This document shows, one piece after another, positions 6,482-38,824 of a stretch of DNA of 64,000 bases. A program made the position numbers and the translations under genes. This stretch comes from Candidatus Parcubacteria bacterium (GTDB lineage: Bacteria > Patescibacteriota > Saccharimonadia > Saccharimonadales > 2-12-FULL-41-12). The first letter of the stretch is position 1; each line of letters opens with the position of its first letter. Location of the stretch: positions 8,565-72,564 of the forward strand of contig JAHWKM010000002.1 of the NCBI GenBank assembly GCA_019347895.1, in the 5' to 3' direction. A model generated the notes under the pieces. It saw nothing but the letters and a program-made list of their open reading frames with translations. It did no database searches and was not told where the DNA came from.

Positions 6482-6532
6482 CTATATGCGGGCGTCTAAA
6501 TTTTAAAAGATTGTTCCTCTCCTATGAGTATC

Positions 6533-6612: not shown

Positions 6613-6658
6613 ACTTTTTAAATAAGCCATTTCAACCGGACATTCCATGTCCGCTCAA

Positions 6659-6867: not shown

Positions 6868-6904
6868 TGAATCGAAAAGGCTTGCTTTTCGATAATCAAG
6901 ATTT

Positions 6905-7181: not shown

Positions 7182-7247
7182 AATATTTAGTTTGCAATAT
7201 CGTAATATTTTTGTTTTCATATAAAATAAATAGAGAGGAGTCAAAAC

Positions 7248-7733: not shown

Positions 7734-7789
7734 TTTTAACTAACTAACTAACCTTTATTTAATCGATCCTAGCCAATACAATTAACTCT

Positions 7790-11675: not shown

Positions 11676-13286
11676 TTATAATAATTTTTTCTTTAGGTTT
11701 GAAAAGGCTAAAATAGCTTCGTTCCGCCACTCCCATAAACCATAAAATAGCGCGCCGATTATACCGCCGACAGCTAGAAATAATCCTTGCTTACCAGCTG
11801 TAGATGCCGGAATATCCTGCACTGGTTTCTGGCCACTAGTGTTAAGAATACTGGCGACATTTCGGCAGCGGTTTGTTTGAGGATTGCGTTCCTTACCTTT
11901 TGCACAAGGTTTTAGTCCGGAGCCGGAAGTGGATTTTTTACAGCGGTTGGTTTTTGGATTGCGAATTTGATCAGCGGCGCACGGCTTTAAACCGGCGTCG
12001 GAAGCAGACTTTTTGCAACGGTTGGTTTGAGGATTTCTAAACTGATCTGGCGCACAGGCTTTAAGAACTGATGACAAGCTGGCCAGGTTACGGCAGCGGT
12101 TGGTTTCGGGGTTGCGAGTTTTGCCGGGAGCGCAGGGCGCGAGACCAGTTGTGGCGGTAATGATATTACAACGGTTCGTTTCAAGATTTCGCAATTGCCC
12201 TTCGGGACAAGGCTTGAATTTTATAAGTTCATTAACGTCGTTCGGCGTAAGCATAAATGTTTCAGCAAAACCACTAGAAAATAACGACCAAGAAGCATCG
12301 TCGCCTAAACCGCCAGGATATTCAACAGTTGATATTTCTGCGTCATTAGTGTTAATCAAATAAACCGTCCCGCCGGCAGAATTGGCAAGCGTAAGACCCG
12401 TTTCATCATTATAAAACGCCCTGTATTGACCCGGTGCTAAATTCTGCTGATCCAATACATACGACTTTGAGTTAGCCGTGGTTTCCAGGCCGCAGCCCTC
12501 AAGCAAAATAGATTCACTGGCCGGATTATGCAGCTCAATAAACTCCTTTCCCGCGTCAGCCCCGGCCGGATTAGGCAAAACCTCCGAAATAATAATCCCC
12601 TCACAGTTATTCGACTCAATAGGCTGTTCTTCTATCTCCTCGTTTGGTATATAGCCGCCAGTCACTGGATCAATCGGCAATGTTGGGGTCGAAAAAATTT
12701 CTCCCGCAGCATACAAAGGATTATCCGGTAAAATCCTTTTTACCGAATAACCGGCTGAGATTTCAGATGTTTTCGGCCAACTTTGGATTTGGTTCGCGCT
12801 ACCCCAGCCAATTTGATCCATAACGATACCTGCATCATCAACCAGCCTTACGTGGCCGCCGCTTTTAGCTAGCAAACCCGATGCAGCAGTGCTGCTTTGC
12901 CCAAAAAAAATGTCAGCATTTTGCATGTAGTTAACATAACTTACAAGCACATAGCCGCCCGTTATTATGACACCGTCAAAGGTAGCCAGAGTACGAGTTG
13001 GCGCAACCTGGAGGTTGCCACTATGGCCAGCTGAAAGATATTCTAGCCGCCAACCAGATAGACTTATTTCTGTATCTTCTGAGGCATTATGCAATTCAAT
13101 AAATTCCTGCTTGCCATCTTCAATCTCGCAAATTGTTGCCTCGACAGTCTTCCACTGTAAGCAGCCACCCGTCTGAACTTCGCTTATTACCACCGAGCTG
13201 CTAGACAATACTTGAGCTGAAATATTAAAAGCAGGCAACAGAATTGAAATAGCAAAAATAAACAATAAACCAAAGGTTTTTAACAT
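11676..13286 (-). CDS. Lamin-tail-domain (LTD) surface protein with five Cys-bracketed RNPxTNRC repeats and a C-terminal TM anchor
   Basis: Signal peptide. Two FIELHN LTD signatures. Repeats CxxxxxRN(P/L)xTNRC at aa 360-476 (nt 11859-12209). C-terminal hydrophobic helix. Confidence 0.65.
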   Translation of the reverse strand: MLKTFGLLFIFAISILLPAFNISAQVLSSSSVVISEVQTGGCLQWKTVEATICEIEDGKQEFIELHNASEDTEISLSGWRLEYLSAGHSGNLQVAPTRTLATFDGVIITGGYVLVSYVNYMQNADIFFGQSSTAASGLLAKSGGHVRLVDDAGIVMDQIGWGSANQIQSWPKTSEISAGYSVKRILPDNPLYAAGEIFSTPTLPIDPVTGGYIPNEEIEEQPIESNNCEGIIISEVLPNPAGADAGKEFIELHNPASESILLEGCGLETTANSKSYVLDQQNLAPGQYRAFYNDETGLTLANSAGGTVYLINTNDAEISTVEYPGGLGDDASWSLFSSGFAETFMLTPNDVNELIKFKPCPEGQLRNLETNRCNIITATTGLAPCAPGKTRNPETNRCRNLASLSSVLKACAPDQFRNPQTNRCKKSASDAGLKPCAADQIRNPKTNRCKKSTSGSGLKPCAKGKERNPQTNRCRNVASILNTSGQKPVQDIPASTAGKQGLFLAVGGIIGALFYGLWEWRNEAILAFSNLKKKLL

Positions 13287-13439: not shown

Positions 13440-13976
13440 TTAAATTCGGTGAGCTTCGAAGACTTGAACGAAATTTTCTAACTTATTTTGTTTAATCTCA
13501 GATTTTAAATATTCACGCGAATCAAAAGTTGAGATCCAGACACTTTTTTGAACTTGGGAAAAAGCAAGTTCCCTTAGTAAAATTCTCAGCTGTCTTCTTT
13601 TAGATCGATCTTTTTCAGGGATATCAAAAATAACCATAAGGCTAGAGTTCTCAAGCTTTTCCGGACTAAATGGCATTAATTTGGACTGGCCTTTATTTGT
13701 TAGGCGCGGATTTTTGCCGTTCGCACTGAATTCAATTAAGCCATTTTTAACGGCGCGATAGTAAGTTGATCTGATAGCTTTTTTATTTATTTTGATCCGA
13801 TCGAGTTTTTCCAAGTCATTAAAAAACTGATTTGGCTTGAATGTTAATTTCACATTTGCTTCGGTGTAGGGAATAAGTCCGGCAAGTATATAATGTAGCG
13901 GCGATCTGTATTTTTTACCCAATCTATCATACTCACTCATAAATTTTATTGTACCAAAATATGTCCGATCGGACAT
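13440..13976 (-). CDS. PaaX-like/Cas2-fold putative transcriptional regulator (start may be the internal ATG at 13940)
   Basis: N-terminal wHTH-like region. Central VIFDIPEKDRSKRRQLRILLRELAFSQVQKSVWIS resembles the PaaX/Cas2-like core. A family D palindrome overlaps the annotated start. Confidence 0.4.
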   Translation of the reverse strand: MSDRTYFGTIKFMSEYDRLGKKYRSPLHYILAGLIPYTEANVKLTFKPNQFFNDLEKLDRIKINKKAIRSTYYRAVKNGLIEFSANGKNPRLTNKGQSKLMPFSPEKLENSSLMVIFDIPEKDRSKRRQLRILLRELAFSQVQKSVWISTFDSREYLKSEIKQNKLENFVQVFEAHRI

Positions 13977-18482: not shown

Positions 18483-20024
18483 GTGAAAAAATTGGCGCAG
18501 GAAACATTGGTGATTTTGGACTTCGGGTCGCAATATACCCAGTTGATAGCCAGGCGGGCGCGCGAACTTAATGTTTATAGCGTAATTTTGCCGTTTAATG
18601 CCAGCTTGAAAAAAATAATGGAACATAATCCGAAAGGCGTGGTGCTTTCCGGCGGGCCGAATTCAGTCTATGAAAAGGATGCGCCGGGGCTGGCTAATGG
18701 AGTGATGTCGCAAAACATGCCGGTACTCGGACTTTGCTACGGAATGCAGTTAATTGCTTACGCGCTCGGCGGCAAAGTAGAACCAGCCGAAAAACGGGAG
18801 TACGGCTTGTCTAAAATCAACGTCCGCGGCAAGAGCAAACTATTTGATGAGAAAATGAATAAATCCACAGTTTGGATGAGCCACGGAGTGCACGTTAGCT
18901 CGCCGCCTAAAACTTTTGAAGTTACGGCTAAAAGCGGCGATATGATAGCCGCCATGGAAAACGCCGACCTAAAACTCTACGGCTTACAATTTCATCCGGA
19001 AACAAGTCACAGCCAATACGGTAAAGAAATGCTTAAAAACTTTCTAGTAAAAATCTGCGGTTTCAATCAAGAATGGAGCGCCGAAGAATTCGTTAATGCT
19101 GAGATAAAAAAAATCCGGAAGCTGGTCGGCAAAAAGCGAGTTATCTGCGCGCTATCCGGCGGAGTCGACTCGTCCGTTGCAGCAACCATTGTTCATAAAG
19201 CCATCGGCGCTCAACAGATGTGTATTTTTGTCGACACGGGTCTTATGCAAAAAGATGATTACGACGAAGTCTTAGGCATATACAAAAACCGCGGTCTGAA
19301 CATAGACGGCGTGCGCGCGGAAAATAGATTTCTGTCCAAGCTGCGAGGCGTGACGAATCCGGAACAAAAACGAAAAATCATCGGCAGGGAATTCATAAAA
19401 ATATTTGAAGAAGAAGCCAAAAAATTCAAAGGGGCGGAATTTCTGGTACAGGGCACTTTGTATCCGGATGTGATTGAGTCGGTTTCTATACACGGCCCGT
19501 CCGTAACCATAAAATCGCATCATAACGTAGGCGGTTTGCCGAAAAAAATGAATTTAAAACTAATTGAGCCTTTGCGAGAACTGTTCAAGGACGAAGTCAG
19601 ACGAATCGGCGGGGAACTAGGTCTGCCACCTAAAATTACTAATAGGCAACCGTTCCCCGGGCCTGGTTTAGGCGTTAGAGTCATCGGTAAAATTACTCCT
19701 AAAGCCGTAGAGATATTGCAAGAAGCTGATTTCATTGTCCGTGAGGAATTTGTAAAAGCCGGAGCTAATAAAGACCTTTGGCAATATTTCGCCGTGTTGC
19801 TGCCCGTCAAAACCGTCGGAGTAATGGGTGATAGCCGTACTCACGAAAAAGTCATTGCCATCCGCGCCGTAGAATCATCAGACGGCATGACCGCCAGCTA
19901 CGCCAAATTGCCCTACAGCTTGCTTGGGAAAATATCCAGCCGCATAATCAGCGAAGTCCAAGGTGTCAACCGCGTCGTCTATGACATAACTTCAAAACCT
20001 CCGGGGACTATTGAATGGGAGTAA
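18483..20024 (+). CDS. guaA: GMP synthase (glutamine-hydrolysing)
   Basis: 513 aa. GATase domain (GLCYGMQ, HPE), the ATP-PPase SGGVDSS motif, C-terminal dimerisation domain ending PPGTIEWE. Confidence 0.95.
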   Translation: MKKLAQETLVILDFGSQYTQLIARRARELNVYSVILPFNASLKKIMEHNPKGVVLSGGPNSVYEKDAPGLANGVMSQNMPVLGLCYGMQLIAYALGGKVEPAEKREYGLSKINVRGKSKLFDEKMNKSTVWMSHGVHVSSPPKTFEVTAKSGDMIAAMENADLKLYGLQFHPETSHSQYGKEMLKNFLVKICGFNQEWSAEEFVNAEIKKIRKLVGKKRVICALSGGVDSSVAATIVHKAIGAQQMCIFVDTGLMQKDDYDEVLGIYKNRGLNIDGVRAENRFLSKLRGVTNPEQKRKIIGREFIKIFEEEAKKFKGAEFLVQGTLYPDVIESVSIHGPSVTIKSHHNVGGLPKKMNLKLIEPLRELFKDEVRRIGGELGLPPKITNRQPFPGPGLGVRVIGKITPKAVEILQEADFIVREEFVKAGANKDLWQYFAVLLPVKTVGVMGDSRTHEKVIAIRAVESSDGMTASYAKLPYSLLGKISSRIISEVQGVNRVVYDITSKPPGTIEWE

Positions 20025-20028
20025 TAGC

Positions 20029-21285
20029 ATGAAAGCCACCTTTGTAGTCGGACTGCAGTACGGGGATGAAGGCAAGGGGAAAATTGTTGACCTGCTGGCT
20101 GAAAAGCATGATGTAATAGTACGCGGTAACGGCGGATCAAATGCCGGGCATACTATTGTTCTAAAGGGTGGTAAAACCCTAGCACTTCATCAAATACCCT
20201 CGGGGATTACTTACGGGGGCAAACAAAATATTATCGGTAACGGTTGTTTTTTTGATCCGGTAAAGCTAGCTGAGGAAATAAAAAACGTGACCGAAAATGG
20301 CGTAAACGTTTCGCCAAAAAATCTGGCAATCAGCAAGGCGGCGCACATAGTTTTGCCAGTACATAAAGCCAAAGACGCGCTGCGTGAAGGCGGCGTCGGC
20401 GCGCAGGGAAGCACTAAAGCCGGCATAGCTTTTGTGGCCTCGGACAAATACCTGCGCGAAGGTATCCGGGCAGAAGCAGCTCTCAATAAATCAGAAAAAG
20501 AATTATATAAAATTGCCCATGATGGCTTGGTGGAGCTAGGCGAGGCCAAGCCGCAAGCCGCGGTCCAAGCCACCGAGTTTGCCCTTGAAACTCTCAAGCT
20601 AAGCGAATACATTGTAGATACCGTGGAGTTAATTCACCAGCAAATAAATTCCGGTAAAGAAATCTTAGTGGAAGGCGCCCAAGCTTTCGGGCTGGACATA
20701 AACCACGGCAAATACCCATTTACCACGTCTTCCGATACGACGGTTGCCGGACTCTTGAGCGGCACAGGTTTAAACTACAAGCAAATCGGAAAAGTTATTG
20801 GCGTAGCCAAGGCCATACCTTCAAAAGTCGGCGGCGGGAATTTCGTAACGGCAATTGGAGATAAAAAAATCGCAGAACAAACCCGAGGCGAAAAAGGCAG
20901 AGTCGACTCAGAATTCGGCGCCACTACAGGACGCCCGCGGGGAGTCGGCTATTTAGACCTCGTGGCCTTAAAACGTGCAGTCGAGGTCAATGGAGTAGAT
21001 GAAATCGCCCTGACAAAATTGGACTGCTTAATACGCCACGGTAAAACGACAAAAATAGCAGTCGCTTATAAGCTAGACGGCCAAGAAATCGAATCGCCGC
21101 CCACCTCCAATGAGGAGCTGGCAAAATGTCAGCCGGTTTACCGTGCATTTTCTACATGGAAAGAAAATGATTCAGCCGAAGCAGAAGAATACTTGGAATT
21201 TATAGAGAAGTACTTAAAAATACCTATTACCATGATTGGTACGGGGCCCGGTAGAAATGATTTATTTATTAGGACAAGAACATGA
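20029..21285 (+). CDS. purA: Adenylosuccinate synthetase
   Basis: GLQYGDEGKGKIVD P-loop, GNGGSNAGHT, GATTGRPRG. GGGAG SD before the ATG at 20029. Confidence 0.9.
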   Translation: MKATFVVGLQYGDEGKGKIVDLLAEKHDVIVRGNGGSNAGHTIVLKGGKTLALHQIPSGITYGGKQNIIGNGCFFDPVKLAEEIKNVTENGVNVSPKNLAISKAAHIVLPVHKAKDALREGGVGAQGSTKAGIAFVASDKYLREGIRAEAALNKSEKELYKIAHDGLVELGEAKPQAAVQATEFALETLKLSEYIVDTVELIHQQINSGKEILVEGAQAFGLDINHGKYPFTTSSDTTVAGLLSGTGLNYKQIGKVIGVAKAIPSKVGGGNFVTAIGDKKIAEQTRGEKGRVDSEFGATTGRPRGVGYLDLVALKRAVEVNGVDEIALTKLDCLIRHGKTTKIAVAYKLDGQEIESPPTSNEELAKCQPVYRAFSTWKENDSAEAEEYLEFIEKYLKIPITMIGTGPGRNDLFIRTRT

Positions 21286-22103
21286 ATTTTTTAGAGAAGT
21301 TAGATAAAGCGGTTGAGAAAAATAACAGCTTGGTATGCGTGGGTCTCGACCCCGATACCGATAAACTGCCCGGACAATTCAAAAACTCTGATAATTCATT
21401 TTTTGAATTTAATAAAGCAATTATTGACGCGACGGCAGATTTGGTCTGCTGCTTTAAGCCAAACTCGGCCTTTTACGAGGCTCTGGGTTCGGACGGAATA
21501 CAAATGCTTGAAGAAACTTGTGACTATATCCGCGAAAAATATCCCGCGATACCGATATTACTAGATTTCAAAAGAGGCGATATTGGAAACACCAACCAGA
21601 AATACGCGCAGTTTGCTTTTGATTATTTAGAAGTTGACGCAGTTACGTTGCACCCGTTCTTTGGCAGAAGCTCTCTGCAGGCCTTTCTTGATTTCAAAGA
21701 TAAGGGCATGGTTATAATGATCAAATCTTCCAATGATGACAGCAGTGAATTGCAGGATTTAAAAGTTGAGGGAGGAAAACTCTTTGAGCACTTAGCTTTC
21801 CAAGTTAAAACTCACTGGAACGAGAACGAGAATTGTCTATTAATGGTTGGCGCGACTTATCCGAGAGAACTTGCTTCCGTACGGAAGATTGCAGGCGACA
21901 AAATGCAAATTTTAGTTCCGGGGGTCGGGGCACAGGGCGGCGTAGCCGAAATGTTAAAAGCCGGACTTAACAGCCAAGGGAGGGGGCTGATAGTAAGCGC
22001 CTCCCGCTCAGTTTTGTACGCGTCAAACAAAGAAGATTTCGCGGATGCCGCCCGCCAAGCCGCTGAAAAACTAAAAACTCAAATCAACCAATTCAGACCT
22101 TAG
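21282..22103 (+). CDS. pyrF: Orotidine-5'-phosphate decarboxylase (type 2)
   Basis: 273 aa. VGLDP, LLDFKRGDIGNT and VPGVGAQGG motifs. Start overlaps the purA stop. Confidence 0.85.
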   Translation: MNFLEKLDKAVEKNNSLVCVGLDPDTDKLPGQFKNSDNSFFEFNKAIIDATADLVCCFKPNSAFYEALGSDGIQMLEETCDYIREKYPAIPILLDFKRGDIGNTNQKYAQFAFDYLEVDAVTLHPFFGRSSLQAFLDFKDKGMVIMIKSSNDDSSELQDLKVEGGKLFEHLAFQVKTHWNENENCLLMVGATYPRELASVRKIAGDKMQILVPGVGAQGGVAEMLKAGLNSQGRGLIVSASRSVLYASNKEDFADAARQAAEKLKTQINQFRP

Positions 22104-22406
22104 TTTTCAACTAAGTCAAAGTTCTTGTGGCCAAGAACCAATTTCGGCGGTACTTCGTACCTACCCCGAGTTCCTTTTTTGTCTGAAAAAAGGAACCGAA
22201 AAAGCAGACAGCAGGTGAGAAAACACGACTGAAGCGAGATACCAGCTTGTCTCGTGATGCGAAAGACTCCTTTCAGTCGGCCCTGTTCCATTTTATCCAA
22301 GGAGCGAACAGGACTTGGTTTCGCATCAGCCATTCGAGACAAGCTGATTCGCCTCAATCGGTTTTATCAATGCTGGGTAAAAGCGATGAGAAAAACTTGT
22401 TTTCTC
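22104..22406 (-). repeat. Family A structured repeat/candidate ncRNA, copy 2 (immediately 3' of the helicase gene)
   Basis: The reverse complement aligns base-for-base with 6905-7143. Junction hairpin at 22388-22406, 11 nt after the helicase stop. Ends with hairpins GGTAC..GTACC and GTTCTTG..CAAGAAC. Confidence 0.65.
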
Positions 22407-22418
22407 AGAATAATAATT

Positions 22419-25400
22419 TTAGTTGTCTAAAGCAGATAGAATTTCATCTATGTGTTTACCTCTATCGTAACTTCCGTCCCATTTAGAGTATGGTATTCTG
22501 TAAAATTTCCATTTTGCTGCCTCTAAAATGCTTTGTCTTTCCCAGTCGCTTTGAACATATACATCCTCGATTTCGTCTTCGAAATGAGTTGGTCCGTCAC
22601 ATTCAATCGCTAATTTTTTGCCGTTAATTTTATTGTGGATAGCAAAGTCAATTTTAAAGCCACAAGATTCAACTTGATTTTGAATTAAATGATTGCTTTT
22701 TAGGTACGGCACTATGAGTTCATAAAAATCACGCTCAAAATTAGAATCAAACATATCTGTATCTACTCCGTCAGAGAACATTCTGGATGCCTTGCCGTTC
22801 TCTTCTACATATTCAAGATATCTTTTTATCCAGATTCCTTCTGGCCATTGTTCCGGTCTTAGAGAAGTTACGCAATGAACTTGGTGTTTGGCTCTCGAAA
22901 ACGCCACATTAACACGGCCTTCATTAAGTTCTCTGTTAATTTCGCCACCTTCGCCTGTTAATGAAATATACCGACTTTTTTCAGAAGGATCACTTATAGC
23001 AAATGAATAGATGATAATTTCTCTTTCGTCGCCCTGTATCCCTTCAATATTGGAAACTTTGATTGATTTATCGTCTATCATTCTTCTCAGTAATTCGGCT
23101 TGTTCTGTGAAGAAGGAAAGTACGCCAATCGACATATCTTTTGTTTGCTCGTCCATTTTAATTTCGCGTATAAGATTGCAGATATATTCTGCTTCATCTA
23201 CATTTGTCTTAAGAGATTCATCCCTCGATCTATTCGAGTCAATTATATGGTTTACCAGCACTCTATTCGTATCCTTGTAAGGTGTAAGTGAGGCATTGAC
23301 TATTTCAAGGGTTCTCTTTCTTGGTCTATAAAAGTATTCGTTTGAAAAACCAATCAATTCACGCGGCGAACGATAATGACTTCTCAGCACTGAACTTCTA
23401 AATCCTTGAAGTATGCCTATGTCCATAACAGACTTCACCGAATCAGACTCACTTTTTATTTGAAGTTCTTCAGGAATTGAATACTTTCTTGCCATCTCCA
23501 GTAATGCATTATTGGATTTAAACTTAATCGTTGTATCACGCATTTGTAATGTGTCGCCAAATAGTAGTGTATGTCTCGCTCGGGACATAGCGGGTATGGC
23601 ATAAGCAAGATTACACTGCGAGGCCTCGTCGATTATTACATAGTCAAAAATATTTAACTCACTCGGTACGATTCTACTCACATCTTCAAGGCTCATCAAC
23701 CACATAGGAAATAGATCTAAAATCGTCTTGAATACAGCCGGATCCGAGCGAAATGAATCATAAGTCTTATATGCCCGTTTAGATTTTTTAAATGTTCGAA
23801 CGGCTCGCTCAACATTCTGTCGGACGGTGGCGTGCGCCCATGCATTATCAAGCCTTGAAGATGTCTTATTACGTAAAGAGTTTTTTACAAATTCTTGATA
23901 CTGCTTTCTGGATTTATGCACTTCTTTATTGAGGGAGTTTATATCTTTAAGCCTTAGGTTGTCGATTTCCTGCTTTAATTCAATAGATTCTATTACTTTA
24001 TCTATGGCTGAATCACCATGTTTTTGTATAAGGTGTACTATTTCGGTATATTCGTCAGATTTTAACCCTAGGTTCTGAAGATTTTTTTTAGCATGAGTTT
24101 CATACTCAAGCATTGAGCGCCTTGTTTCTTCTGATTGAAATGCTAGTATCAAATCTTGAAGCTGAGACCCCAATTTCGTTTTACTTGGAGATCTATTAAA
24201 CTCATCCAGTATTTCTGAGATATAATTTCTTACCTCAACAGGCAGATTATTTGAAACATTCTTTTGTTTAGATAGGGATACTCGATTATGCAGTTTCCTT
24301 GTGATACTAAAGCCAGAATCTTTTATTTGAACCATTAGGCTGGTTTTCATCTGCTCAATATGTCCTGCCGAGTTAACGTAATATTCCATATTGATATAAC
24401 CAAGCTTATTAAAAATTTTTTCATGAGTTTTGTGGTTGCTAGCCACAAATTCTTTCATTTCTTTCAAATGTTTAAGTGTCTTTCTAATATCATTAATCCT
24501 TTCTAAAGGGCTGGCCGTTATAAATTTTTCCGGTTGTGAAATTTTTACATTGAATTCATCGAGATTATTTAGCTTATCTTTTAATTCAAAGTATTTCCTT
24601 TGATTTTGGAATTGGTCGTTATATTCATTTACGACCGATTCAATACTTTTATTTGGCTCTTGCTCAAAAGTACCTCGTCGTCTGTCTTCAATCACTGACT
24701 TTATTCTTGATAGTTCATTTGCGGCGCCATCTACGTCATCGTTAAGTGTATGCAACGCGGAATATCTATCTGGTATATACCCATATAGACCAGGGATATC
24801 TAAACTTTTAAGTAGATCTTTGACCACACGTATTGCCTGATCTTTCTGGCTGACAAAAAGGACTTTCTTATCATTCGCCGCTAAGTGGCATAGAAGGTTT
24901 GCAATTGTCTGCGACTTACCCGTGCCTGGCGGACCTTGAATTATAGAGGCCCTATTTTTTATTTGAGCTAAGACTTCACGCTGATATTTATCAGATAGAA
25001 ATGGAAAATATACTGAGCCTTCTGAACTATTAATATCAATTGTCTCATCTAGCTCGCGCTCATCCACAAAACCTGAAAGGGATGTTTCAAGCAGTTCGTC
25101 CTGCTCCGTGTCTACGAGATTATCAAGATCTTGCGTTAGGAAAAAATTACTTTTCGGTGCAAGCGATATGGATAGATATGCTAAATTAAGCGGTTCACCG
25201 CTGAAAACTACTTCTTCGCACAACCTTAATTCATTAAGCAACTCTTCGTATACTTGCTGAATGACTGTAGTGTCCACAGGTAAAGTAAATTTGCCTTCAA
25301 GCTCCATGCTATTTATTCTTTTTTGAAATTCTTGATATCGATCGGCCCCTAATACTTGTGACATAAATGAAAAACTGGGGGTTATGCGATCATCAAGAAG

Positions 25401-25892
25401 AGTTATTTGCTTTTTTATCCCATTATTTTCAATCTCTATAGGTATAGTAAAAACCGGAAACTGAATTTTCTTTTTTATAGATTCATCTGCCTCATCTTCT
25501 CCTTCAACCTCTAATACGTCTTTAGCGACAAGATCTACATAACCAAGATTGAGCTGGGTTTGTTTTGTAAAACTATCAGTATCAACTTTTAATTTTATTT
25601 CATCAAGTACATTGAGAAGTCTGCGCTGGTATTCGAACTCTTTTTTATTATCTCCCTCTAATTCTTCTATTTTCTTTAAATCTGACTCATAAAAAAGTTC
25701 ACACTTTATACCAAGCTGAATACCGTAAGATATGTCGTCTTCGTCTACGGCCGCAAGGATATCATTTAGTGATAGGATGTGCGGTTTTATCTGATCAGTT
25801 TTTAAGCTAGACCGCTGCCTTACTGGATTTACCATTCCGAGATATGTTTTTGCGTATAAAATTAAGTTTTTTAGTTCAACTACCGAAGACAT
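22419..25892 (-). CDS. Upf1/DNA2-like SF1 helicase with a long N-terminal DUF4011-like region and a C-terminal DUF559/Vsr-like PD-(D/E)xK nuclease domain
   Basis: 1157 aa. Walker A GPPGTGKS, Walker B VIIDEASQ, LFGDTLQM, HYRSPRELIGFSNEYFY, IQGDEREIII, NVAFSRAK. C-terminus KIDFAIH...LAIECDGPTHF...YRIPYSKW. Visibly more AT-rich than neighbouring genes (judged by eye, not computed). Confidence 0.8.
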   Translation of the reverse strand: MSSVVELKNLILYAKTYLGMVNPVRQRSSLKTDQIKPHILSLNDILAAVDEDDISYGIQLGIKCELFYESDLKKIEELEGDNKKEFEYQRRLLNVLDEIKLKVDTDSFTKQTQLNLGYVDLVAKDVLEVEGEDEADESIKKKIQFPVFTIPIEIENNGIKKQITLLDDRITPSFSFMSQVLGADRYQEFQKRINSMELEGKFTLPVDTTVIQQVYEELLNELRLCEEVVFSGEPLNLAYLSISLAPKSNFFLTQDLDNLVDTEQDELLETSLSGFVDERELDETIDINSSEGSVYFPFLSDKYQREVLAQIKNRASIIQGPPGTGKSQTIANLLCHLAANDKKVLFVSQKDQAIRVVKDLLKSLDIPGLYGYIPDRYSALHTLNDDVDGAANELSRIKSVIEDRRRGTFEQEPNKSIESVVNEYNDQFQNQRKYFELKDKLNNLDEFNVKISQPEKFITASPLERINDIRKTLKHLKEMKEFVASNHKTHEKIFNKLGYINMEYYVNSAGHIEQMKTSLMVQIKDSGFSITRKLHNRVSLSKQKNVSNNLPVEVRNYISEILDEFNRSPSKTKLGSQLQDLILAFQSEETRRSMLEYETHAKKNLQNLGLKSDEYTEIVHLIQKHGDSAIDKVIESIELKQEIDNLRLKDINSLNKEVHKSRKQYQEFVKNSLRNKTSSRLDNAWAHATVRQNVERAVRTFKKSKRAYKTYDSFRSDPAVFKTILDLFPMWLMSLEDVSRIVPSELNIFDYVIIDEASQCNLAYAIPAMSRARHTLLFGDTLQMRDTTIKFKSNNALLEMARKYSIPEELQIKSESDSVKSVMDIGILQGFRSSVLRSHYRSPRELIGFSNEYFYRPRKRTLEIVNASLTPYKDTNRVLVNHIIDSNRSRDESLKTNVDEAEYICNLIREIKMDEQTKDMSIGVLSFFTEQAELLRRMIDDKSIKVSNIEGIQGDEREIIIYSFAISDPSEKSRYISLTGEGGEINRELNEGRVNVAFSRAKHQVHCVTSLRPEQWPEGIWIKRYLEYVEENGKASRMFSDGVDTDMFDSNFERDFYELIVPYLKSNHLIQNQVESCGFKIDFAIHNKINGKKLAIECDGPTHFEDEIEDVYVQSDWERQSILEAAKWKFYRIPYSKWDGSYDRGKHIDEILSALDN

Positions 25893-25953
25893 GCATTAAT
25901 TATATCTTCATTAGACCGTCTAGCATAATCCCTAAATATCAGCCAAAAATCTG

Positions 25954-26083
25954 AGAAAATCTGAGATTTTCTTATCTGCTTTTGTTCAGGCGCTCTGGAA
26001 GTTCCCGCCGTCGACCGGGCTTTGGCGGACAGGCCTGATCAGTGAATGCCAAAATAGTATTTATAGAAAAACAGGTTTTTTCT
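25954..26083 (-). repeat. Junction modules upstream of the helicase gene: two GAGAAA..TTTCTC-type hairpins (25954-25972, 26065-26083) bracketing a fragment of a copy-1-type B unit (25978-26048)
   Basis: The reverse complement of 25978-26048 matches 6826-6867 (CATTCACT-ATCAGG...AACTTCCAGAGC-CTGAACAAAAGC) apart from a 29-nt insert. Confidence 0.55.
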
Positions 26084-26089
26084 ATTCTA

Positions 26090-26347
26090 ATTGTTGGGTT
26101 TGGGCATTGAGAGCCGTCCTGATTGGCGAATGTCAAAAACACAATTACTAGCGAGGCAGTGTTTAAGCCCCTCACCTTTTTGGATGTAAAAAGGTGAGGG
26201 GTGAGTTTGCCGAGCATTGTGTCTTTTGACAATGAGACAGTCAAGACGGATCGACGCCCAAGAGTTTTTGCATTCTTTTGTCGGCACAAAAGAATGGACT
26301 TGCTTCTTTGTCGAAAGAAGTTGGCTTGGTTCTTCGACCAGAAGAAC
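26090..26347 (-). repeat. Family B structured repeat, copy 2 (starts at the purP stop codon)
   Basis: TTGGGC..GCCCAA, CCGTC/GACGG and TGTCAAAAGACACAAT/ATTGTGTTTTTGACA helices. Interior hairpin GCCCCTCACCTTTTT..AAAAAGGTGAGGGG. Outer hairpins covary with the other copies. Confidence 0.65.
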
Positions 26348-27453
26348 TATGTAATTATAGAATCAAGTTTGTTTTCGGAAATCGCTTGTTTTACTTCCAT
26401 GGCTATCCGCTGCCCAAAACTTATGTTGTCGCCGTAAAGGTAGCCGGAGTAGGGGGTAAACATCGAGCCGGGACTGCCAGGAATGCGCATGCTGACGTCA
26501 AACACATAAAGTTCCTCTTTGGGCGGGCCAGCCGTGATGGCGCCCTGCAAAGCAAATGGGCCAATCATACCCGGCGGATAATGTTTGGCAACGGCTTCAA
26601 CGAATCGCTCGCCGGCATCGAAGGCTTTTTCCAGCAATGATTCTTTAATCGTTACGGCTTGATGCCCATTCTCTATATACTTTGGCTGTACATGTTTTAA
26701 GACTTCTATTTGTTCTTTTGCCGTCAATCGAAGGAGACCGTCGATATTTGTTTGCCTGCGGGTGTCGGTCCCTAGCAGCTCCAGTTGGCCTGACAAGGCT
26801 GAAAAAAAGAAATTTAAATTAAGCTGGGGCCCTAAAACGAATTCTTCGATAATTGCCCGTGCGATACCAGCTTCACTAATGGAGCCATTCTTGACCCTGG
26901 CTTCGCATTCTCTTTTATAATCCTCATAATTATTTACTAAGAAAAACGCCCGCTCGTAGCTTCGGGCTTCTTCGGCGGCTTTGACTATCACCAGCCGATC
27001 AATGTCTTTGGGATCTTTGTATTGTTTAGGGATAGTTATGCCGGCTTCTTTCAATAAGAAATACTGATTTTTTTCCTCGTCGCGTTCTTCTTTGCGCACT
27101 AAAATCCGGTTGCCCAGGATGGGCACGTCAAAGTCAGACTCAACGGCTTTATTGTCGCAGTAAACCCAAAAATACCGGCTGTTAACAAAAACCGCATTCA
27201 GATCCCGCAGCTGTTTTTGAATCTCCGGCTTGATGATATCGCCAAATGAATCCACATAAATTATATGGTCCACGCAGCCTTTTTCTCCGCGAGTTTTATA
27301 ATATCTGTCGTAAGTTTTTGCCCGGTCTTTTCTGGTGACAACTACCGTTTCATATCCTTCTTTTTTAGCACCGCGGCAAACATCCAGCGCACTATGGCCG
27401 CCAAGCGTCGCGATACGAACATTATTTAAATCATAGCCTTGGAGCAGTTTCAT
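26347..27453 (-). CDS. purP: PurP-family ATP-grasp enzyme (archaeal-type FAICAR synthetase family), paralogue 1
   Basis: 368 aa, collinear with M. jannaschii PurP as I recall it: IATLGGHSALDVCRGAKKEGY, GPFALQ, VFDVSMRIPGSPG. Confidence 0.8.
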   Translation of the reverse strand: MKLLQGYDLNNVRIATLGGHSALDVCRGAKKEGYETVVVTRKDRAKTYDRYYKTRGEKGCVDHIIYVDSFGDIIKPEIQKQLRDLNAVFVNSRYFWVYCDNKAVESDFDVPILGNRILVRKEERDEEKNQYFLLKEAGITIPKQYKDPKDIDRLVIVKAAEEARSYERAFFLVNNYEDYKRECEARVKNGSISEAGIARAIIEEFVLGPQLNLNFFFSALSGQLELLGTDTRRQTNIDGLLRLTAKEQIEVLKHVQPKYIENGHQAVTIKESLLEKAFDAGERFVEAVAKHYPPGMIGPFALQGAITAGPPKEELYVFDVSMRIPGSPGSMFTPYSGYLYGDNISFGQRIAMEVKQAISENKLDSIIT

Positions 27454-28562
27454 TAACCCAGTACTTTCTCCAGCTGATTTGATTCTATGGCTTCTTTGAT
27501 TTCAAGGGCCACGCGTCGTCCGGTGCTCATCGGCACGTCATAGCGCAGATCAGCATAAGGCGAACCGTTAATGTATGGATTGGTACCAGCCACAATCCTA
27601 GCCGAGATTTCAAAAACATAAATTTCCATCTCAGGAGTAATAATGGTTTCCAGACAAAACGGTCCGATCAAACCGCCCGGTTCCAATTCCTGGGAAACCT
27701 CTATAACCCTCTCTCCCATAGAGAAAAGGTCAGGCAAGAACTTCTCGCGTATTACGACCGGGATATTGCCCATGATATTATACGAACTCTCGATATTAAG
27801 GTCCAACTGATCCTTAGCGCTTATCCGGCCGATGGAGTCGACGTTGGTTTCATAGCGCTTATCCATACTCATTACCTCCAGCTCGCCGGATAGCGGGGAG
27901 TAGAAGTAATGGACATAAATAGGCGCGCCGACAATATATTCCTGGATAATATGCCTTTTATTCTCGGTTTCTTTGATTTTCTTATAAAATTCAGCGGGGT
28001 TTTTGGCCAGGAAAAAGCCTTTGCCGCCGCCAGCACCAAAAAATTTTATGATAACGGGACCGTCTATTTCCTCCGGAGTTTTATATATCTTAGGCAGCTT
28101 CAGGCCGGCCTTCTTTAACCAGTCGCGCTGCTTCTCACGGTTTTCTTCCCACGGCAAGATCTTTTTGTTGCCAAAATACAGGGCATTTGAGGCATTCAAA
28201 GCGCTTAAATCCGTATAGGCGCTAAAGAAAGAGCCGTGCGGCACAAGTATGACATTTTCATCAATTAGCCTTTGCTCGAGTTTGACTATATCTTTAAAGC
28301 TATCAATTTCGATAATCTCATCGGCAATCCGGTAAGAACGGTAAGGCTGAGACCGTCCCTTTTCGCAAATAATAATATTTCTGAAACCTTCGTCGCGCGC
28401 ACCTTTTAAGATTTGCAGGGAAGAGTGGCTGCCAAGCGTTCCGATCTTATAGTCCTTTAAATCCACCTTAAATCCTAATTCTGTTAAGTGAAGTTCGTTT
28501 TGGCGAGTGCTCCGTTTGGGTTTTGGCGAGAAGACATATCTGTGGATACGTTGACGAGTCAA
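27453..28562 (-). CDS. purP: PurP-family ATP-grasp enzyme, paralogue 2 (likely start GTG at 28466 after AGGA)
   Basis: IGTLGSHSSLQILKGARDEGF, VPHGSF, VHYFYSPL, MDKRYETNVD, GNIPVVIRE, GPFCLE, VFEISARIVAGTN. Very close in pattern to archaeal PurP. Confidence 0.85.
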   Translation of the reverse strand: MTRQRIHRYVFSPKPKRSTRQNELHLTELGFKVDLKDYKIGTLGSHSSLQILKGARDEGFRNIIICEKGRSQPYRSYRIADEIIEIDSFKDIVKLEQRLIDENVILVPHGSFFSAYTDLSALNASNALYFGNKKILPWEENREKQRDWLKKAGLKLPKIYKTPEEIDGPVIIKFFGAGGGKGFFLAKNPAEFYKKIKETENKRHIIQEYIVGAPIYVHYFYSPLSGELEVMSMDKRYETNVDSIGRISAKDQLDLNIESSYNIMGNIPVVIREKFLPDLFSMGERVIEVSQELEPGGLIGPFCLETIITPEMEIYVFEISARIVAGTNPYINGSPYADLRYDVPMSTGRRVALEIKEAIESNQLEKVLG

Positions 28563-29637: not shown

Positions 29638-29743
29638 TTTATTCCTCCTAAAATTTAGTTCAAGATTAATCTTAGCATATACTTTACCAAATGTCAAGAC
29701 TAATGCTTATTAATTAATGTACGGATGTTATCATAGCTGGACA

Positions 29744-30955
29744 ATGTCAGCTGTTAAATTTCATATAACTACTAGAAGCGGTAATGCCCGTACAGGGGTA
29801 ATAGCCACGCCCCATGGGCCGATAAAGACCCCGGCCTTTATCCCCGTCAGTACGAAAGCGACAGTAAAAACGCTAGACGTTCATGACCTGCAAAAACTAA
29901 AAGCACCGGCAGTGCTGGCCAATGCATATCATCTGTATTTAAGGCCCGGACCAGAGCTGATAGCCAAATTGGGAGGAGTAGGGGAATTTATGGGCTGGAA
30001 CGGGCCGACCTTCACCGACAGCGGCGGCTTCCAGGTTTTTTCGCTCGGCTTTGGCCTTGAACATGGCGTCGGCAAGGTCGCTAATATCTTTCCCGACGAA
30101 GATTTGCAAGGCCGGGCCTCGCAAACTAGGAAAAGGTTGTTTAATATTGATAAGGACGGAGCTAACTTCGTCTCGCACCTGGACGGCTCAAAACACAGGT
30201 TTACTCCTGAAAACTCAATAGAAATACAGCAAATGCTCGGCGCCGATATCATCTTCGCTTTTGACGAATGTACTTCGCCGCTGCACGGAAAAAAATATAC
30301 TGCCGAGGCAATGGAGCGCACTCATGCCTGGGCAAAAAGATGCCTGCAAGCTTGGACCAACAGAGACAAGCAAGGACTATATGGAATAATCCAGGGCGGC
30401 GCGTATAAGGATTTACGGATAGCTAGCAGCGAATTCATCTGTGCTTTAGATACGCCGGGAATCGCTATCGGCGGCAGTTTGGGTAAGAGTAAAAAAGATA
30501 TGTACGAGATAATGGACTGGACTATACCCGTTTTGCCGGAGGATAAGCCGCGGCATTTACTGGGAATCGGCGAGGTAGAAGACCTTTTCGGTGCCAGCGC
30601 CAGGGGAATCGACACTTTTGACTGCGTGTCGCCGACTAGAAATGCCCGCAACGGCAGCGTATATATAAGGCCGGAAAATGGCGGAACGGCAAAAAATAAA
30701 TATTCTATCAATATCAGGGCTGGAAAATATTCTCAAAATACAGAACCTATTGACCCGGGCTGTAAGTGTTTTACCTGTCAAAATCACAGCCGGGCCTATA
30801 TCCGACACCTATTCGTCAGCGAGGAACTACTAGCCATGCGCCTGGCGACTATCCACAATCTGCACTTCATCTTTACCTTAATGGCTGAAATCCGCCACGC
30901 TATTCAACAAGAGACGTTGCATAATTTAGCCGACAATTGGCAAATAAACCCTTAA
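29744..30955 (+). CDS. tgt: tRNA-guanine transglycosylase (queuine tRNA-ribosyltransferase)
   Basis: ARTGVIATPHGPIKTPAFIPV, TDSGGFQV, and the Zn site CKCFTCQNHSRAYIRHL. Confidence 0.9.
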   Translation: MSAVKFHITTRSGNARTGVIATPHGPIKTPAFIPVSTKATVKTLDVHDLQKLKAPAVLANAYHLYLRPGPELIAKLGGVGEFMGWNGPTFTDSGGFQVFSLGFGLEHGVGKVANIFPDEDLQGRASQTRKRLFNIDKDGANFVSHLDGSKHRFTPENSIEIQQMLGADIIFAFDECTSPLHGKKYTAEAMERTHAWAKRCLQAWTNRDKQGLYGIIQGGAYKDLRIASSEFICALDTPGIAIGGSLGKSKKDMYEIMDWTIPVLPEDKPRHLLGIGEVEDLFGASARGIDTFDCVSPTRNARNGSVYIRPENGGTAKNKYSINIRAGKYSQNTEPIDPGCKCFTCQNHSRAYIRHLFVSEELLAMRLATIHNLHFIFTLMAEIRHAIQQETLHNLADNWQINP

Positions 30956-33215: not shown

Positions 33216-33380
33216 GGAGAGGTGTCCGAGTGGCTGAAGGAGCACGCTTGGAAAGCGTGTATGCGCAGCAATGCGCATCGAGGGTGAGAACTGCCGGTGG
33301 CAGTTCGCAAGGAAATCTTCTCTTGAAAACTTGTTTTCAAAGACGAAGTTTCGGGGTCGCTGTAAGCGACCGAATCCCTT
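33216..33380 (+). pseudogene. Disrupted tRNA-Ser(GGA)-like copy: intact 5' two-thirds, ~85-nt structured insert in the T-loop, no 3' acceptor strand
   Basis: GGAGAGGTGTCCGAGTGGCTGAAGGAGCACGCTTGGAAAGCGTG plus a variable arm, then GAGGG-[33286-33370]-CGAATCCCT. The following ATTATTA cannot pair with GGAGAGG. Confidence 0.55.
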
Positions 33381-33394: not shown

Positions 33395-33484
33395 GGAGGA
33401 GTGGCCGAGTGGTTTAAGGCGCACGCTTGGAAAGCGTGTTGAGGAGCAATTCTCTCGCAGGTTCAAATCCTGTCTCCTCCGCCA
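33395..33484 (+). tRNA. tRNA-Ser (anticodon GGA), CCA encoded
   Basis: Hand-folded cloverleaf: acceptor GGAGGAG/CTCCTCC, anticodon arm CACGC-TTGGAAA-GCGTG, long variable arm, T arm GCAGG-TTCAAAT-CCTGT. Confidence 0.9.
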
Positions 33485-38127: not shown

Positions 38128-38148
38128 TTGCAAGGCCGGGCCTTGCAA
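38128..38148. repeat. REP hairpin TTGCAAGG-CCGGG-CCTTGCAA (left flank of the RAYT gene)
   Basis: Perfect 8-bp stem. Its reverse complement equals the right-flank hairpin apart from one base. Confidence 0.7.
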
Positions 38149-38163: not shown

Positions 38164-38775
38164 CTAATAATCTGCCAGGTCGTATTTTATTTCATCAAGC
38201 ATACTTTTGTGCTCTTCATAGTCATTCAAAAATTCTAAGTAGTCAGTATCCTCCATCATTTCCGCGATGCGATTAGGCAACAACCATTCCGCCTGTCTTT
38301 CGCCCAGATAATAAGGCAGGCTGGAAAACTCCCACTGCCTCCATTGCCGGGGGTTTAAGTGAATATATCGGGAAATATGCTGCAAATAACCTTCGTTCAG
38401 TATGTGGCTTGCCTTGTATCGGTCTTGGAACAGCGGTCCAACACGTGTATATTTTTTATTAAAATAGGTGCTATAAGAACTGATTACCGCCAGCATCAGC
38501 TCTGTCAGCGCGTTTTTATCGTGGATATAAATTAATAAATGATAATGGTTTGGCATTAAGCAAAAAGCCAAAAGCTCTATTCTGCCATTCATGTGTGAAT
38601 ATTCGCGGCCAGAATCATCTTTGGTAGGCTTTTTACTCAGGTATCGCTTGAAAAGATTCAGAAAAACAGCATAGTCCTGCTCGTCGATGAATATCTTCCT
38701 CTTCTCAACGCCGCGATTATATACATGATAGAAAGAATCATCCGCATAAATTTTCAATCTGTTTCTGCTTGGCAT
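38164..38775 (-). CDS. IS200-like Y1 (HUH) transposase of the REP-associated tyrosine transposase (RAYT) type
   Basis: 203 aa. YHVYNRG, HUH motif PNHYHLL, catalytic Tyr context SRYIHLNP. Flanked by inverted REP hairpins. Confidence 0.8.
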   Translation of the reverse strand: MPSRNRLKIYADDSFYHVYNRGVEKRKIFIDEQDYAVFLNLFKRYLSKKPTKDDSGREYSHMNGRIELLAFCLMPNHYHLLIYIHDKNALTELMLAVISSYSTYFNKKYTRVGPLFQDRYKASHILNEGYLQHISRYIHLNPRQWRQWEFSSLPYYLGERQAEWLLPNRIAEMMEDTDYLEFLNDYEEHKSMLDEIKYDLADY

Positions 38776-38803: not shown

Positions 38804-38824
38804 TTGCGAGGCCCGGCCTTGCAA
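38804..38824. repeat. REP hairpin TTGCGAGG-CCCGG-CCTTGCAA (right flank of the RAYT gene, inverted orientation)
   Basis: See 38128-38148. Confidence 0.7.

Follow-up and report, generated by a model that had tools for sequence, protein, structure and literature searches.

The insertion sequences IS1397 and ISKpn1 insert between the two inverted repetitive extragenic palindromes (REPs) of a bacterial interspersed mosaic element (BIME), and the minimal mobile elements of Neisseria provide a comparison for fixed core-gene junctions with variable content. The locus described here calls for comparison with both. It lies in a stretch of 64 kb (positions 8,565 to 72,564 of contig JAHWKM010000002.1 from Candidatus Parcubacteria bacterium), hereafter the window; the window is a part of the source genome, and all counts given for it refer to these 64 kb. 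Between the stop codons of the genes purP and pyrF, an open reading frame (ORF) of 1157 residues encoding a helicase-nuclease is enclosed by two structured, noncoding repeat modules, B and A. The gene is probably a stand-alone, horizontally acquired gene of defence type, carried as a passenger in the central slot of a lineage-specific foldback element that resembles transposable elements of the miniature inverted-repeat kind (MITEs), and the element would be the repeated unit.

Like MITEs and foldback elements, the element is noncoding, multi-copy and intergenic, has inverted termini, folds on itself, and is present or absent at an orthologous site. As in Pack-MITEs and MITE-bounded composites, some of its copies carry passenger genes and no transposase. 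It differs from MITEs in that its arms are long covarying rods with conserved G-U pairs on one strand, that its passengers occupy one precise central position with one polarity, and that no target duplication or parent insertion sequence is known for it. With REPs, BIMEs and REPINs (REP doublets forming hairpins), it shares inverted palindromic pairs at gene ends and a central spacer that serves as the insertion site. However, its rods measure 165-190 nt within modules of 250-300 nt, as compared with 20-40 nt for REP units, the gene of the window that resembles a RAYT (REP-associated tyrosine transposase) has another cognate palindrome, and the inserts are single accessory genes instead of insertion sequences. 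The likeness to integron cassettes and their attC sites, such as the Vibrio cholerae repeats, resides in structure-conserved palindromes of single-stranded DNA (ssDNA) that tightly bracket unrelated ORFs; moreover, many integron cassettes are adaptive or defensive. In contrast with integrons, there is no IntI, no attI and no array, the modules are inverted pairs at dispersed loci and not direct repeats in one array, and inspection of the rod ends by eye revealed no R'/R'' core sequences. The purP|pyrF junction is itself comparable to the Neisseria minimal mobile elements and to core defence hotspots, being a fixed core junction with variable accessory or defence content, except that two of its states are bounded by a structured repeat pair that is also found at other loci. 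Core defence hotspots bounded by conserved genes are exemplified by cDHS1 and cDHS2 of Pseudomonas aeruginosa (PMC10250203). Judged by what defines each class, the element is neither a REPIN/RAYT system, nor a palindrome-associated transposable element (PATE) of the IS200/IS605 kind, nor an integron. The searchable literature on structured repeats, MITEs and defence hotspots returned no description of such elements in the candidate phyla radiation (CPR), Patescibacteria or Saccharibacteria.

Insertion of the block between purP and pyrF

Orthologous junctions were reached through homologues of PurP, the closest of which are labelled Saccharibacteria or Saccharimonadales in the protein database search, and eight related loci (~136 kb) were compared. 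The end residue of PurP is identical at all compared junctions. The stop codons of purP and pyrF overlap in L041 and L046 (TTAG and TTAA, respectively) and lie 5 nt apart in L044/L045, while a 197-nt spacer separates the two genes in L051. A covariance model of the A rod (R1, 165 positions) detects no module in these eight loci. Because the related loci have abutting purP and pyrF genes or other inserts, all without modules, the whole B-gene-A block of 4243 nt (22104-26346) is an insertion at a place where the ancestral junction had no spacer, with both stop codons regenerated. The junction thus compared displays at least five states in about ten loci, namely empty, the 197-nt spacer, a 146-residue ORF, three ORFs, B-reverse transcriptase-A in the metagenomic locus L002, and B-helicase-A in the window. 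Because relatives devoid of modules hold unrelated small ORFs, the junction appears to be a general hotspot in the clade. The single 146-residue ORF is that of L047-L050 (8549-8989 in L047), and the three small ORFs, of 178, 108 and 120 residues, are those of L043 (8558-10150).

Anatomy of the filled element

The element comprises two modules of ~250-300 nt that mirror each other across a central slot, B to its left and A to its right. Each module comprises, from the centre outward, an AT-rich hairpin with a T-rich tail, a rod of ~165-190 nt, and two or three outer hairpins. In the filled copy, which reads on the minus strand throughout, the 1157-residue ORF is located between module B, beside the purP stop, and module A, beside the pyrF stop. 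Sequence reading places the outer array of module B, three short hairpins, at 26263-26346, the first of them (TTCTTC..GAAGAA) directly following the purP stop (26347-26349); the same hairpin types recur, mirrored, at the outer end of A and also at other B copies. The ensuing B rod (26095-26262) is a long imperfect hairpin, CTTGGGCGTCG...GCCCAAACCC, delineated by BLAST and by the consensus fold, and R1 scores it best in the inverted sense. BLAST analysis within the window aligns family B (26081-26321) with 50221-50472 (70.5%, E 1e-24), 53153-53401 (69.8%, E 5e-24) and 6726-6844 (72.5%). The B inner hairpin (26063-26085, ATAGAAAAA..TTTTTCTAT) and its T-rich tail ending in TATTTTGGC span nucleotides 26048-26085 (sequence reading, hairpin scan). 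Next comes a fragment of a second B module (25978-26047), which BLAST and sequence comparison assign to the 3' arm of the type seen at 6831-6878, with an extra GC hairpin (25967-26005 is 84.6% identical to 6842-6878); this fragment is presumably a recombination scar. The left edge of the cargo slot is formed by hairpin hp1 (25954-25972, AGAAAATCT-C-AGATTTTCT) together with CAGATTTTTGGC, the whole covering 25942-25972 (sequence reading, hairpin scan), with TTTTTGGC following hp1 at 25942-25949.

The cargo gene begins with an AT-rich 5' untranslated leader (25893-25941, by sequence reading), which displays no homology to the 5' flank of an orthologue of 72% identity described below. The ORF itself (22419-25892, ATG start) was characterized by ORF call, Pfam, PADLOC, NCBIfam, and AlphaFold2/Foldseek analyses, and its GC content is 36.3%, as compared with 45-46% in purP and in pyrF plus purA. 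Hairpin hp2 (22387-22407, TGAGAAAA-CAAG-TTTTTCTCA) begins 11 nt past the cargo stop codon and, together with the T-rich leader TCGCTTTTACC, forms the inner end of A (22376-22407; sequence reading, hairpin scan); its counterparts at gene-free sites are found at 53420-53453 and 6904-6937. The A rod (22209-22375) is a long hairpin with a Y-shaped tip, CAGCATTGATAAAACCGATTG...GCTG, recognized by R1 (181 bits), by covariation and by its strand-specific fold. The outer hairpins of A (22104-22208), ending in GGTTCTTGGCCACAAGAAC, are the mirror image of the outer end of B and lie directly against the pyrF stop (22101-22103); this outer part is 89.6% identical to that of the copy in L029. Family A as a whole (22104-22418, the 315 nt from cargo stop to pyrF stop) aligns by BLAST with 6904-7146 (90.5%, E 4e-92) and with 53412-53670 (76%, E 7e-45), in the orientation expected of the B-to-A composite. 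A scan of the window for A-run hairpins reports the GAGAAA/CGAAAA type at module sites only.

A sequence-only reading of this stretch had already placed the ORF at the junction of two repeat families with a partial second B, had noted the three hairpins, T-rich tails and the higher AT content of the gene relative to its flanks, and had singled out two sites at which B and A are contiguous as empty sites. The ORF coordinates, the BLAST matches, the hairpin scan, the GC contents, and the gene-free sites at 6612-7185 and 53155-53727 bear it out on all these points.

Gene-free and solo copies

The window contains three A and four B copies. Gene-free element 1 (6612-7185, plus strand) comprises a B rod (~6695-6870), inner hairpins at 6871-6893 and 6905-6924, an A rod (6938-7104), and an outer end; its termini, AAATAAGCCATTTC and GAAATGGCTTTTT, are inverted repeats of each other. 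Gene-free element 2 (53155-53727, plus strand) comprises module B (53155-53419), a single inner hairpin (53420-53441), an A rod (53454-53619), and outer hairpins, and occupies the entire gap from the stop of a gene with a DUF4367 domain to the start codon of gltX. A gene-free element is thus ~0.55 kb long. In the A outer end of element 2 (53660-53727), a sigma-70-like motif can be made out by eye (TTGAAG, 17-18 nt, TATAAA), ~30 nt before the gltX start, and the module may serve as a promoter source for this essential gene. Regarding element 1, it precedes dapA (7790-8674), and immediately upstream two ORFs (5301-5903 and 5966-6481) correspond to the parts of a split gene for a pyridoxal phosphate (PLP) enzyme of the Cys/Met kind. 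The 3' end of dapB, 47 nt with the stop codon (2735-2781), is duplicated with 94% identity at 6565-6611, just to the left of the element. The dapB 3' duplicate and the split PLP-enzyme gene suggest a rearrangement linked to element 1.

A solo B module (50221-50472, minus strand) directly follows the stop of a gene with a PEGA domain, and its inner end abuts the 3' end of an AT-rich (40% GC) GHKL ATPase gene (48720-50219, plus strand). The encoded ATPase, whose gene sits between a sortase gene and the solo B module, resembles MzaB (PADLOC 1e-25; NCBIfam 2e-32, below the cutoff), and no MzaA, MzaC, MzaD or MzaE partner was found near it. The gene points toward the A-like sense of the solo module, and it may represent a further defence-type passenger with a single module left.

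Fold, covariation and mirror relation of the modules

B and A each fold as a long rod. Compared with shuffled sequences, the RNA fold of the gene-free elements yields z-scores of -13.2 (element 2) and -9.9 (element 1). R1 reports the three window A copies with 171-181 bits (E ~1e-42 to 1e-44), within an overall score range of 171-183 bits. Chance is excluded for the repeat families because of these R1 scores and fold z-scores. The A consensus was built on eight copies (three from the window, five from metagenomic relatives) and the B consensus on five. The A consensus folds into a ~165-nt rod with a Y-shaped tip, in which 93% of the cells are paired. Both partners have changed in 15 of its 61 pairs, as compared with 7.4 +/- 1.8 in shuffles, none of 500 shuffles reaching 15, and pairing falls to ~36-40% when the partners are slid against each other. 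Several G-U pairs are conserved, and the consensus energy is -69.8 kcal/mol for the given strand versus -50.5 kcal/mol for its complement. The B consensus has 47 pairs, 13 of them changed on both sides. Even the short stem of the inner hairpin survives three pair changes from one genome to another (TGAG..CTCA versus ATCG..CGAT).

The sequence-only reading had treated B and A as two families. The repeats are real, as stated above, but the two families do not look independent: B behaves like an inverted A that has diverged, a relation that is clear in metagenomic relatives and weak for the window copies. R1 scores on the reverse strand amount to 89.5 bits for the left module of L007, 66 bits for that of L035/L005 and 57 bits for that of L002, and to 42.9, 32 and 19.7 bits for window B copies, each of them above the direct sense. 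The left modules of L035, L007 and L002, of a type named B2, are 67-73% identical to inverted A, far above shuffles, and L029 and L034 simply have an inverted copy of the A type as their left module. The preferred strand of the fold is the top one in eight of eight A copies and the bottom one in six of eight B copies. Likewise, the loop of the inner hairpin is CAAG in A and CTTG in B, GTTCTTC..GAAGAAC hairpins are found at both outer ends, and the order of the outer hairpins is reversed between B and A. With its two inverted modules made of mirrored parts, the unit qualifies as a foldback element.

Contents of the slot at other loci

Relatives of the modules were found through the A motif at at least eight loci of two metagenomes (Ga0136558 and Ga0306869), all on short contigs; the metagenome scan with this motif gave 36 matches, among which these eight loci only are true relatives. 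One of them, L002 (Ga0136558_1004153), shares synteny with the window, in the order purA, pyrF, A, cargo, B, purP, purP, and its housekeeping DNA is 70.5-73.7% identical to that of the window. Its cargo is not the helicase-nuclease but a 525-residue defence reverse transcriptase (PADLOC RT_UG14, E 2.6e-135). At other module pairs, the slot holds a helicase of the HNH-DEAD/RecQ-like kind (DpdF 4e-100, PsyrT 2e-74) with two small ORFs (L034), a 233-residue HSDR_N/PD-(D/E)xK protein (L033), or ORFs of 73, 307 and 350 residues without family match (L003, L035/L005 and L029, respectively); the L003 pair is located between a secY-like gene and infA. The slot is gene-free in L007 and at the two window sites described above. 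The search of related metagenomes for other cargo, which the sequence-only reading had proposed, therefore returned different genes both at this junction and at other pairs, and the notion, also voiced there, of an insertion hot spot for defence genes fits these varied contents. At the locus of the PEGA gene, L035 has a module pair with a different cargo, the right-hand gene being an orthologue of the window PEGA gene (70% amino acid identity), while the window has the solo B module and the GHKL gene.

The architecture around the cargo is regular. In all seven filled pairs, the cargo is directed toward the canonical A, and in four of the five fully sequenced cases (window, L003, L033 and L002) its stop codon lies 6-14 nt before the A-side hairpin. 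The GC content of the cargo is 0.33-0.40 in six of seven filled slots, as compared with 0.45-0.49 in the flanks; that of the 73-residue ORF of L003 is 0.44, and L029 was left out of this comparison. Fragments are found at the slot edges, at 25978-26085 in the window and as an inverted B arm before the A-side hairpin in L035, L034 and L029. The A copy of L002 is 85% identical to the window A at 53454 and 77% identical to the A at the orthologous site, the two window A copies at 22209 and 6938 share 90.5% identity, and both modules at purP|pyrF belong to different subtypes in the window and in L002. Because module subfamilies cross genome boundaries in this way, movement or replacement of whole units is favoured.

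One further locus connects two of the cargo types. In L055, a contig of Microgenomates, a helicase-nuclease 49% identical to that of the window (4315-8379) is directly followed by a 233-residue HSDR_N_2 protein (8483-9184), and the latter is 61% identical to the sole cargo of the L033 pair. The genes for these two proteins may come from a common pool of defence genes or constitute a two-gene system.

The helicase-nuclease

The cargo protein is 100% identical to an NCBI entry annotated as 'AAA family ATPase [Candidatus Parcubacteria bacterium]', which, together with the labels of the PurP homologues, assigns the window to a CPR bacterium. Pfam analysis reports AAA_11 (8.5e-17), AAA_12 (3e-22) and REase_MTES_1575 (1e-13), and homologues additionally match PF04480 (DUF559). 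The protein comprises an N-terminal domain (residues 1-300), a Upf1-like SF1B helicase with a long helical insert (residues ~302-1010), and a REase_MTES_1575 domain of DUF559/Vsr fold (residues 1066-1153). The Walker A motif GPPGTGKS is invariant in the family. A phmmer search against the PDB returns IGHMBP2 (8e-11) and Sen1 (3e-7), and Foldseek analysis of the AlphaFold2 model (predicted local distance difference test score 78.9) returns SETX (2e-14), Aquarius, ZNFX1, Upf1, IGHMBP2 and Dna2. By the fold of this model and by its motifs, the helicase core is of the Upf1-like SF1B type. The helicase core and the DUF559/Vsr-like nuclease had been recognized in the sequence-only reading and are recovered by Pfam and Foldseek; the DUF4011-like N-terminus proposed there is not, since no DUF4011 match was obtained among 12 Pfam families at E <= 0.01, and residues 1-300 have no Pfam match at E <= 5. 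These residues are conserved within their own family, with more than 2000 matches, many of them in CPR.

The best-matching defence families are PDC-S37, ProA and Hhe, the last combining a DUF4011 helicase with a Vsr-like endonuclease and being reportedly a system of Gao et al. 2020; PDC-S37 is not mentioned in the literature searched. PADLOC reports PDC-S37 with 1e-68 (residues 724-1154, on a profile of 1550 positions), Hhe with 1e-31, and MkoC/MkoA with 1e-25. NCBIfam reports ProA (NF058533) with 9e-71 and 238.9 bits against a cutoff of 1500, over residues 723-1155 only, and Hhe (NF042953) with 2e-40 and 138 bits against a cutoff of 2000, residues 722-1138 aligning with positions 1255-1665 out of 1797 in the profile. 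It is therefore the segment of residues ~722-1155, second RecA lobe of the Upf1-like SF1 helicase plus DUF559/Vsr-fold nuclease, that aligns with Hhe, ProA and PDC-S37, and the cargo is likewise a single AT-rich gene in an accessory slot. In contrast, it counts 1157 residues and not ~1800-1900, it has no detectable DUF4011, its 300 N-terminal residues match its own family only, and its scores are far under the equivalog cutoffs of Hhe and ProA. The protein thus appears to be a short relative of the Hhe/ProA kind and, by curated criteria, not a member. The resemblance to Mokosh that had been put forward is confined to the COG1112/Upf1-like helicase core, seen in the MkoC and MkoA matches. The cargo lacks the phospholipase D (PLD) nuclease of Mokosh, the slot holds no second gene, and the PDC-S37, ProA and Hhe matches are all stronger. 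Mokosh membership was rejected on the nuclease, which is REase_MTES_1575 and not PLD. From these family relationships and from its context, a role of the helicase-nuclease in defence seems likely.

Orthologues of the protein are found without the modules. In L039/L040, the orthologue with 72% identity begins 170 nt past a tRNA 3' end and overlaps with a convergent gene; those with 59% and 49% identity (L054 and L055) also have no modules, and at the nucleotide level the window and L039 are homologous within the ORF only. Because the cargo varies and orthologues occur without these flanks, helicase and flanks are independent, and B and A are not cofactors of the helicase. An orthologue of 76% identity (P0002) is preceded by ~1.4 kb with tiny ORFs only, a region that could consist of modules.

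Origin of the unit and rival explanations

If the passenger reading is correct, a single element with its cargo would have inserted exactly where the purP and pyrF stops ancestrally overlap. Gene-free copies would be MITE-like, and filled copies would carry one to three genes, mostly of defence type, pointing toward A. The modules would act in cis as folded ssDNA or RNA, marking the ends of the unit for an enzyme encoded elsewhere; as the window has no transposase or integrase in cis except an unrelated Y1 gene, any such enzyme would have to act in trans. Module copies could recombine with one another, or recombination could occur in the 10-13 nt that separate the inner hairpins, and cargo could be exchanged in either way. 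Going outward, each module displays a hairpin with a T-tract, the rod then a T-tract, and further hairpins. These outward arrays of hairpins and T-tracts suggest a module role in stopping transcription out of the foreign gene, which could shield the housekeeping neighbours from cargo transcription. The helicase-nuclease itself would function as a Hhe/ProA-like translocase driven by NTP, delivering its Vsr-fold nuclease to foreign nucleic acid, without B or A.

Several points weigh against this reading. Neither the window nor the related loci yielded a mobilising enzyme, or an autonomous copy whose modules enclose a transposase or recombinase. A transposase acting on inverted repeats of double-stranded DNA would not need rods kept by strand-specific covariation and conserved G-U pairs. 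The uniform polarity and the 6-14-nt spacing between stop and hairpin look more like directed cassette insertion than random capture. Inspected by eye and against the ancestral empty junctions, the flanks, TAG...TTAG in the window and TTAA...CTAA in L002, are compatible with a 3-4-bp duplication of the ancestral TTAR but do not demonstrate one; the repeats are imperfect, are in any case demanded by the two stop codons, and are set in an AT-rich context. The B copies of the window, of a type named B1, are only marginally above shuffles in their homology to inverted A. A simple terminator scan of 21900-26500 reports nothing in the modules, promoter and terminator hits being fewer than in shuffles. 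Finally, the copies come from two metagenomes and were found by the A motif, so that the sample is biased to elements with a canonical A.

The main rival is a site-specific cassette mechanism, which is not mutually exclusive with a MITE-like carrier and retains this rank because of the precise central position of the cargo, its polarity, the tight spacing, and the fragments at the slot edges. In its simplest form, B and A would be a resident platform, a docking site resembling that of integrons, into and out of which short cassettes made of a leader and an ORF move at the inner AT-rich hairpins by means of a recombinase or an ssDNA enzyme; gene-free sites with a single hairpin would be excision products. 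We consider this possible but on the whole doubtful. All cargo does lie exactly between the B-side and A-side hairpins, always with the same polarity and, in the four loci named above, with its stop codon 6-14 nt before the A-side hairpin. The gene-free sites have either two hairpins 10-13 nt apart (6871-6924 and L007) or one (53420-53441), the hairpin stem is maintained through compensatory changes, and repeated events seem to have left scars at slot edges, in the form of extra hairpins and module fragments. However, inverted hairpins with CTTG and CAAG loops predict inversion and not excision for a conventional recombinase, neither the window nor the related loci contain an integrase or recombinase gene, there are no cassette arrays, and the sequence after the B-side hairpin is not conserved among cassettes. 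Besides, the presence of different module subtypes at purP|pyrF in two genomes argues against an old platform that swaps its cargo alone. A bolder and slightly less probable version, to be held only tentatively, is that modules and inner hairpins constitute a hitherto undescribed gene-cassette system of CPR, or of Saccharibacteria-like bacteria, that does without integron integrases and in which folded ssDNA modules would define a slot where minimal defence cassettes are inserted, exchanged and transcriptionally shielded.

An improbable alternative is passive coincidence, A and B being gene-end repeats of the BIME, REPIN or Correia kind, and accessory genes arriving by recombination of the flanks after DNA uptake, with no causal link between modules and cargo. 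The purP|pyrF junction is indeed variable even without modules (L047-L050, L043, L051), ComEC is encoded in the window and in relatives, which makes natural transformation plausible, and bounded core hotspots are known (PMC10250203). Yet seven of seven filled cases are bracketed by an inverted module pair within tens of nucleotides and with the same polarity, the modules are absent from all related genomes whose junction has other inserts, and the inner hairpins occur at module sites only in the A-run hairpin scan; two independent processes would not yield such a regular architecture.

The sequence-only reading had offered, as one option, a hairpin-dependent element of the IS200/RAYT style that captures cargo. 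The part that posits a non-autonomous carrier is in keeping with the variable slot contents; the part that posits the IS200/RAYT mechanism is not. An ssDNA transposon of the IS200/IS605 or RAYT type (PATE or REPIN), moved by the Y1 transposase encoded at 38164-38775, is very improbable. A Y1_Tnp gene is present in the window, the elements have hairpins and fold as single strands, and the paired inverted palindromic units recall REPINs. However, the Y1 gene, on the minus strand, has its own GC-rich palindrome of 21 nt, TTGCAAGGCCnGGCCTTGCAA, at 38128-38148 and 38804-38824, which is absent from A and B. In addition, the ends of IS200/IS605 elements fold on the same strand and are not inverted, while B and A are, and the units are 5-8 times longer than REPs. 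REPIN/RAYT was accordingly rejected as a candidate, TTGCAAGGCCnGGCCTTGCAA around the Y1 gene being unrelated to A, B or their hairpins, and so was the IS200/IS605 PATE, the modules being inverted with opposite strand preferences. A third copy of TTGCAAGGCCnGGCCTTGCAA (30104-30124) lies inside the tRNA-guanine transglycosylase (TGT) ORF (29717-30955), which makes three matches versus 0.01 expected.

The least credible proposal, also among the earlier options, is that B and A are noncoding RNAs working with the helicase-nuclease as guide, sensor or antitoxin: for all their strong structure and covariation, the stability of A on the strand co-transcribed with the gene and its position immediately 3' of the ORF, the modules enclose genes for a reverse transcriptase, for an HNH-DEAD helicase or for a small protein resembling a nuclease, ORFs without family match, or nothing, the 72%, 59% and 49% orthologues have no modules, and homology to the first of these stops inside the ORF.

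Other features of the window and scope of the searches

On one side of the block, the plus strand carries guaA, purA and pyrF (18483-22103); on the other, two paralogues of purP occupy the minus strand (26347-28562). Pfam analysis of virtually every window ORF of at least 120 residues reports housekeeping genes and ComEC, and no transposase or integrase other than the Y1 (IS200-like) gene. Rfam 15 returns only two tRNAs at gathering score for the whole window, and nothing above 15.6 bits at E <= 10 for 53100-53760, which contains gene-free element 2. A scan of reference genomes with the 21-mer CAGCATTGATAAAACCGATTG gave one match, attributable to chance with the 21-mer alone in common, and hence no further module copy. 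Viral contigs, phage records and plasmid records contain no A or B relatives, their matches of 17-22 nt being due to chance, and a search of the protein database for further A copies through spurious ORF translations returned no match. Another abundant repeat family is found in contigs of metagenome Ga0224511 (L009-L036; at least 16 contigs), and has the exact 19-21-mer GCATTGATAAAACCGATTG(A), likewise as a hairpin 5' arm. It has nothing else in common with A and R1 gives no match, and the common sequence may be either a coincidence or a shared protein-binding motif.

Several observations concern other parts of the window. A 178-residue protein (13440-13976, minus strand) has a PaaX-central/Cas2-like domain (1e-15), and no CRISPR array or other cas gene was seen in the window. 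Five tandem units of ~75 nt (64-76% identical, 11866-12213) lie inside the ORF of a Lamin-tail-domain gene (11676-13286, minus strand) and probably form a coding repeat. A direct repeat of 58 nt with 90% identity joins the 3' end of an impB/DinB-like gene (60393-60450; gene 59113-60450) to a site 320 nt downstream (60713-60770). A partial tRNA 3' half (..GGGGGACAGTTCGATTCTCCCTCCCGGCACCA) is located at ~46944-46975 on the minus strand, just downstream of tRNA-Leu (47019-47105), and a second copy of a 45-nt stretch from the 5' part of tRNA-Ser is found 179 nt upstream of the complete gene (33216-33260 versus 33395-33439). These partial tRNA pieces look like remnants of integration at tRNA genes.

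Significance

Taken with the comparisons above, the locus is indicative of a hitherto undescribed element that carries defence genes or serves as their docking site. Rods of 165-190 nt with strand-specific covariation are candidates for an ssDNA recombination substrate, for an RNA 3'-end or transcription-blocking element, or for both. Should the modules prove to be MITE-like repeats of an ordinary kind, a defence hotspot at purP|pyrF is still documented and the idea of RNA partners is removed. If the cassette system is real, it would be a new mobile or recombination element and a marker for new immune genes of CPR bacteria, the cargo proteins of 73, 307 and 350 residues being the first candidates. 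In either case, the covariance model of the A rod can be used to screen the contents of such slots in CPR metagenomes by guilt of location. The genomes of these bacteria are very small and tightly packed, and little is known on how they acquire and exchange immune genes; the repeat pair would offer them a compact means of carrying or docking defence genes while leaving adjacent essential genes intact.

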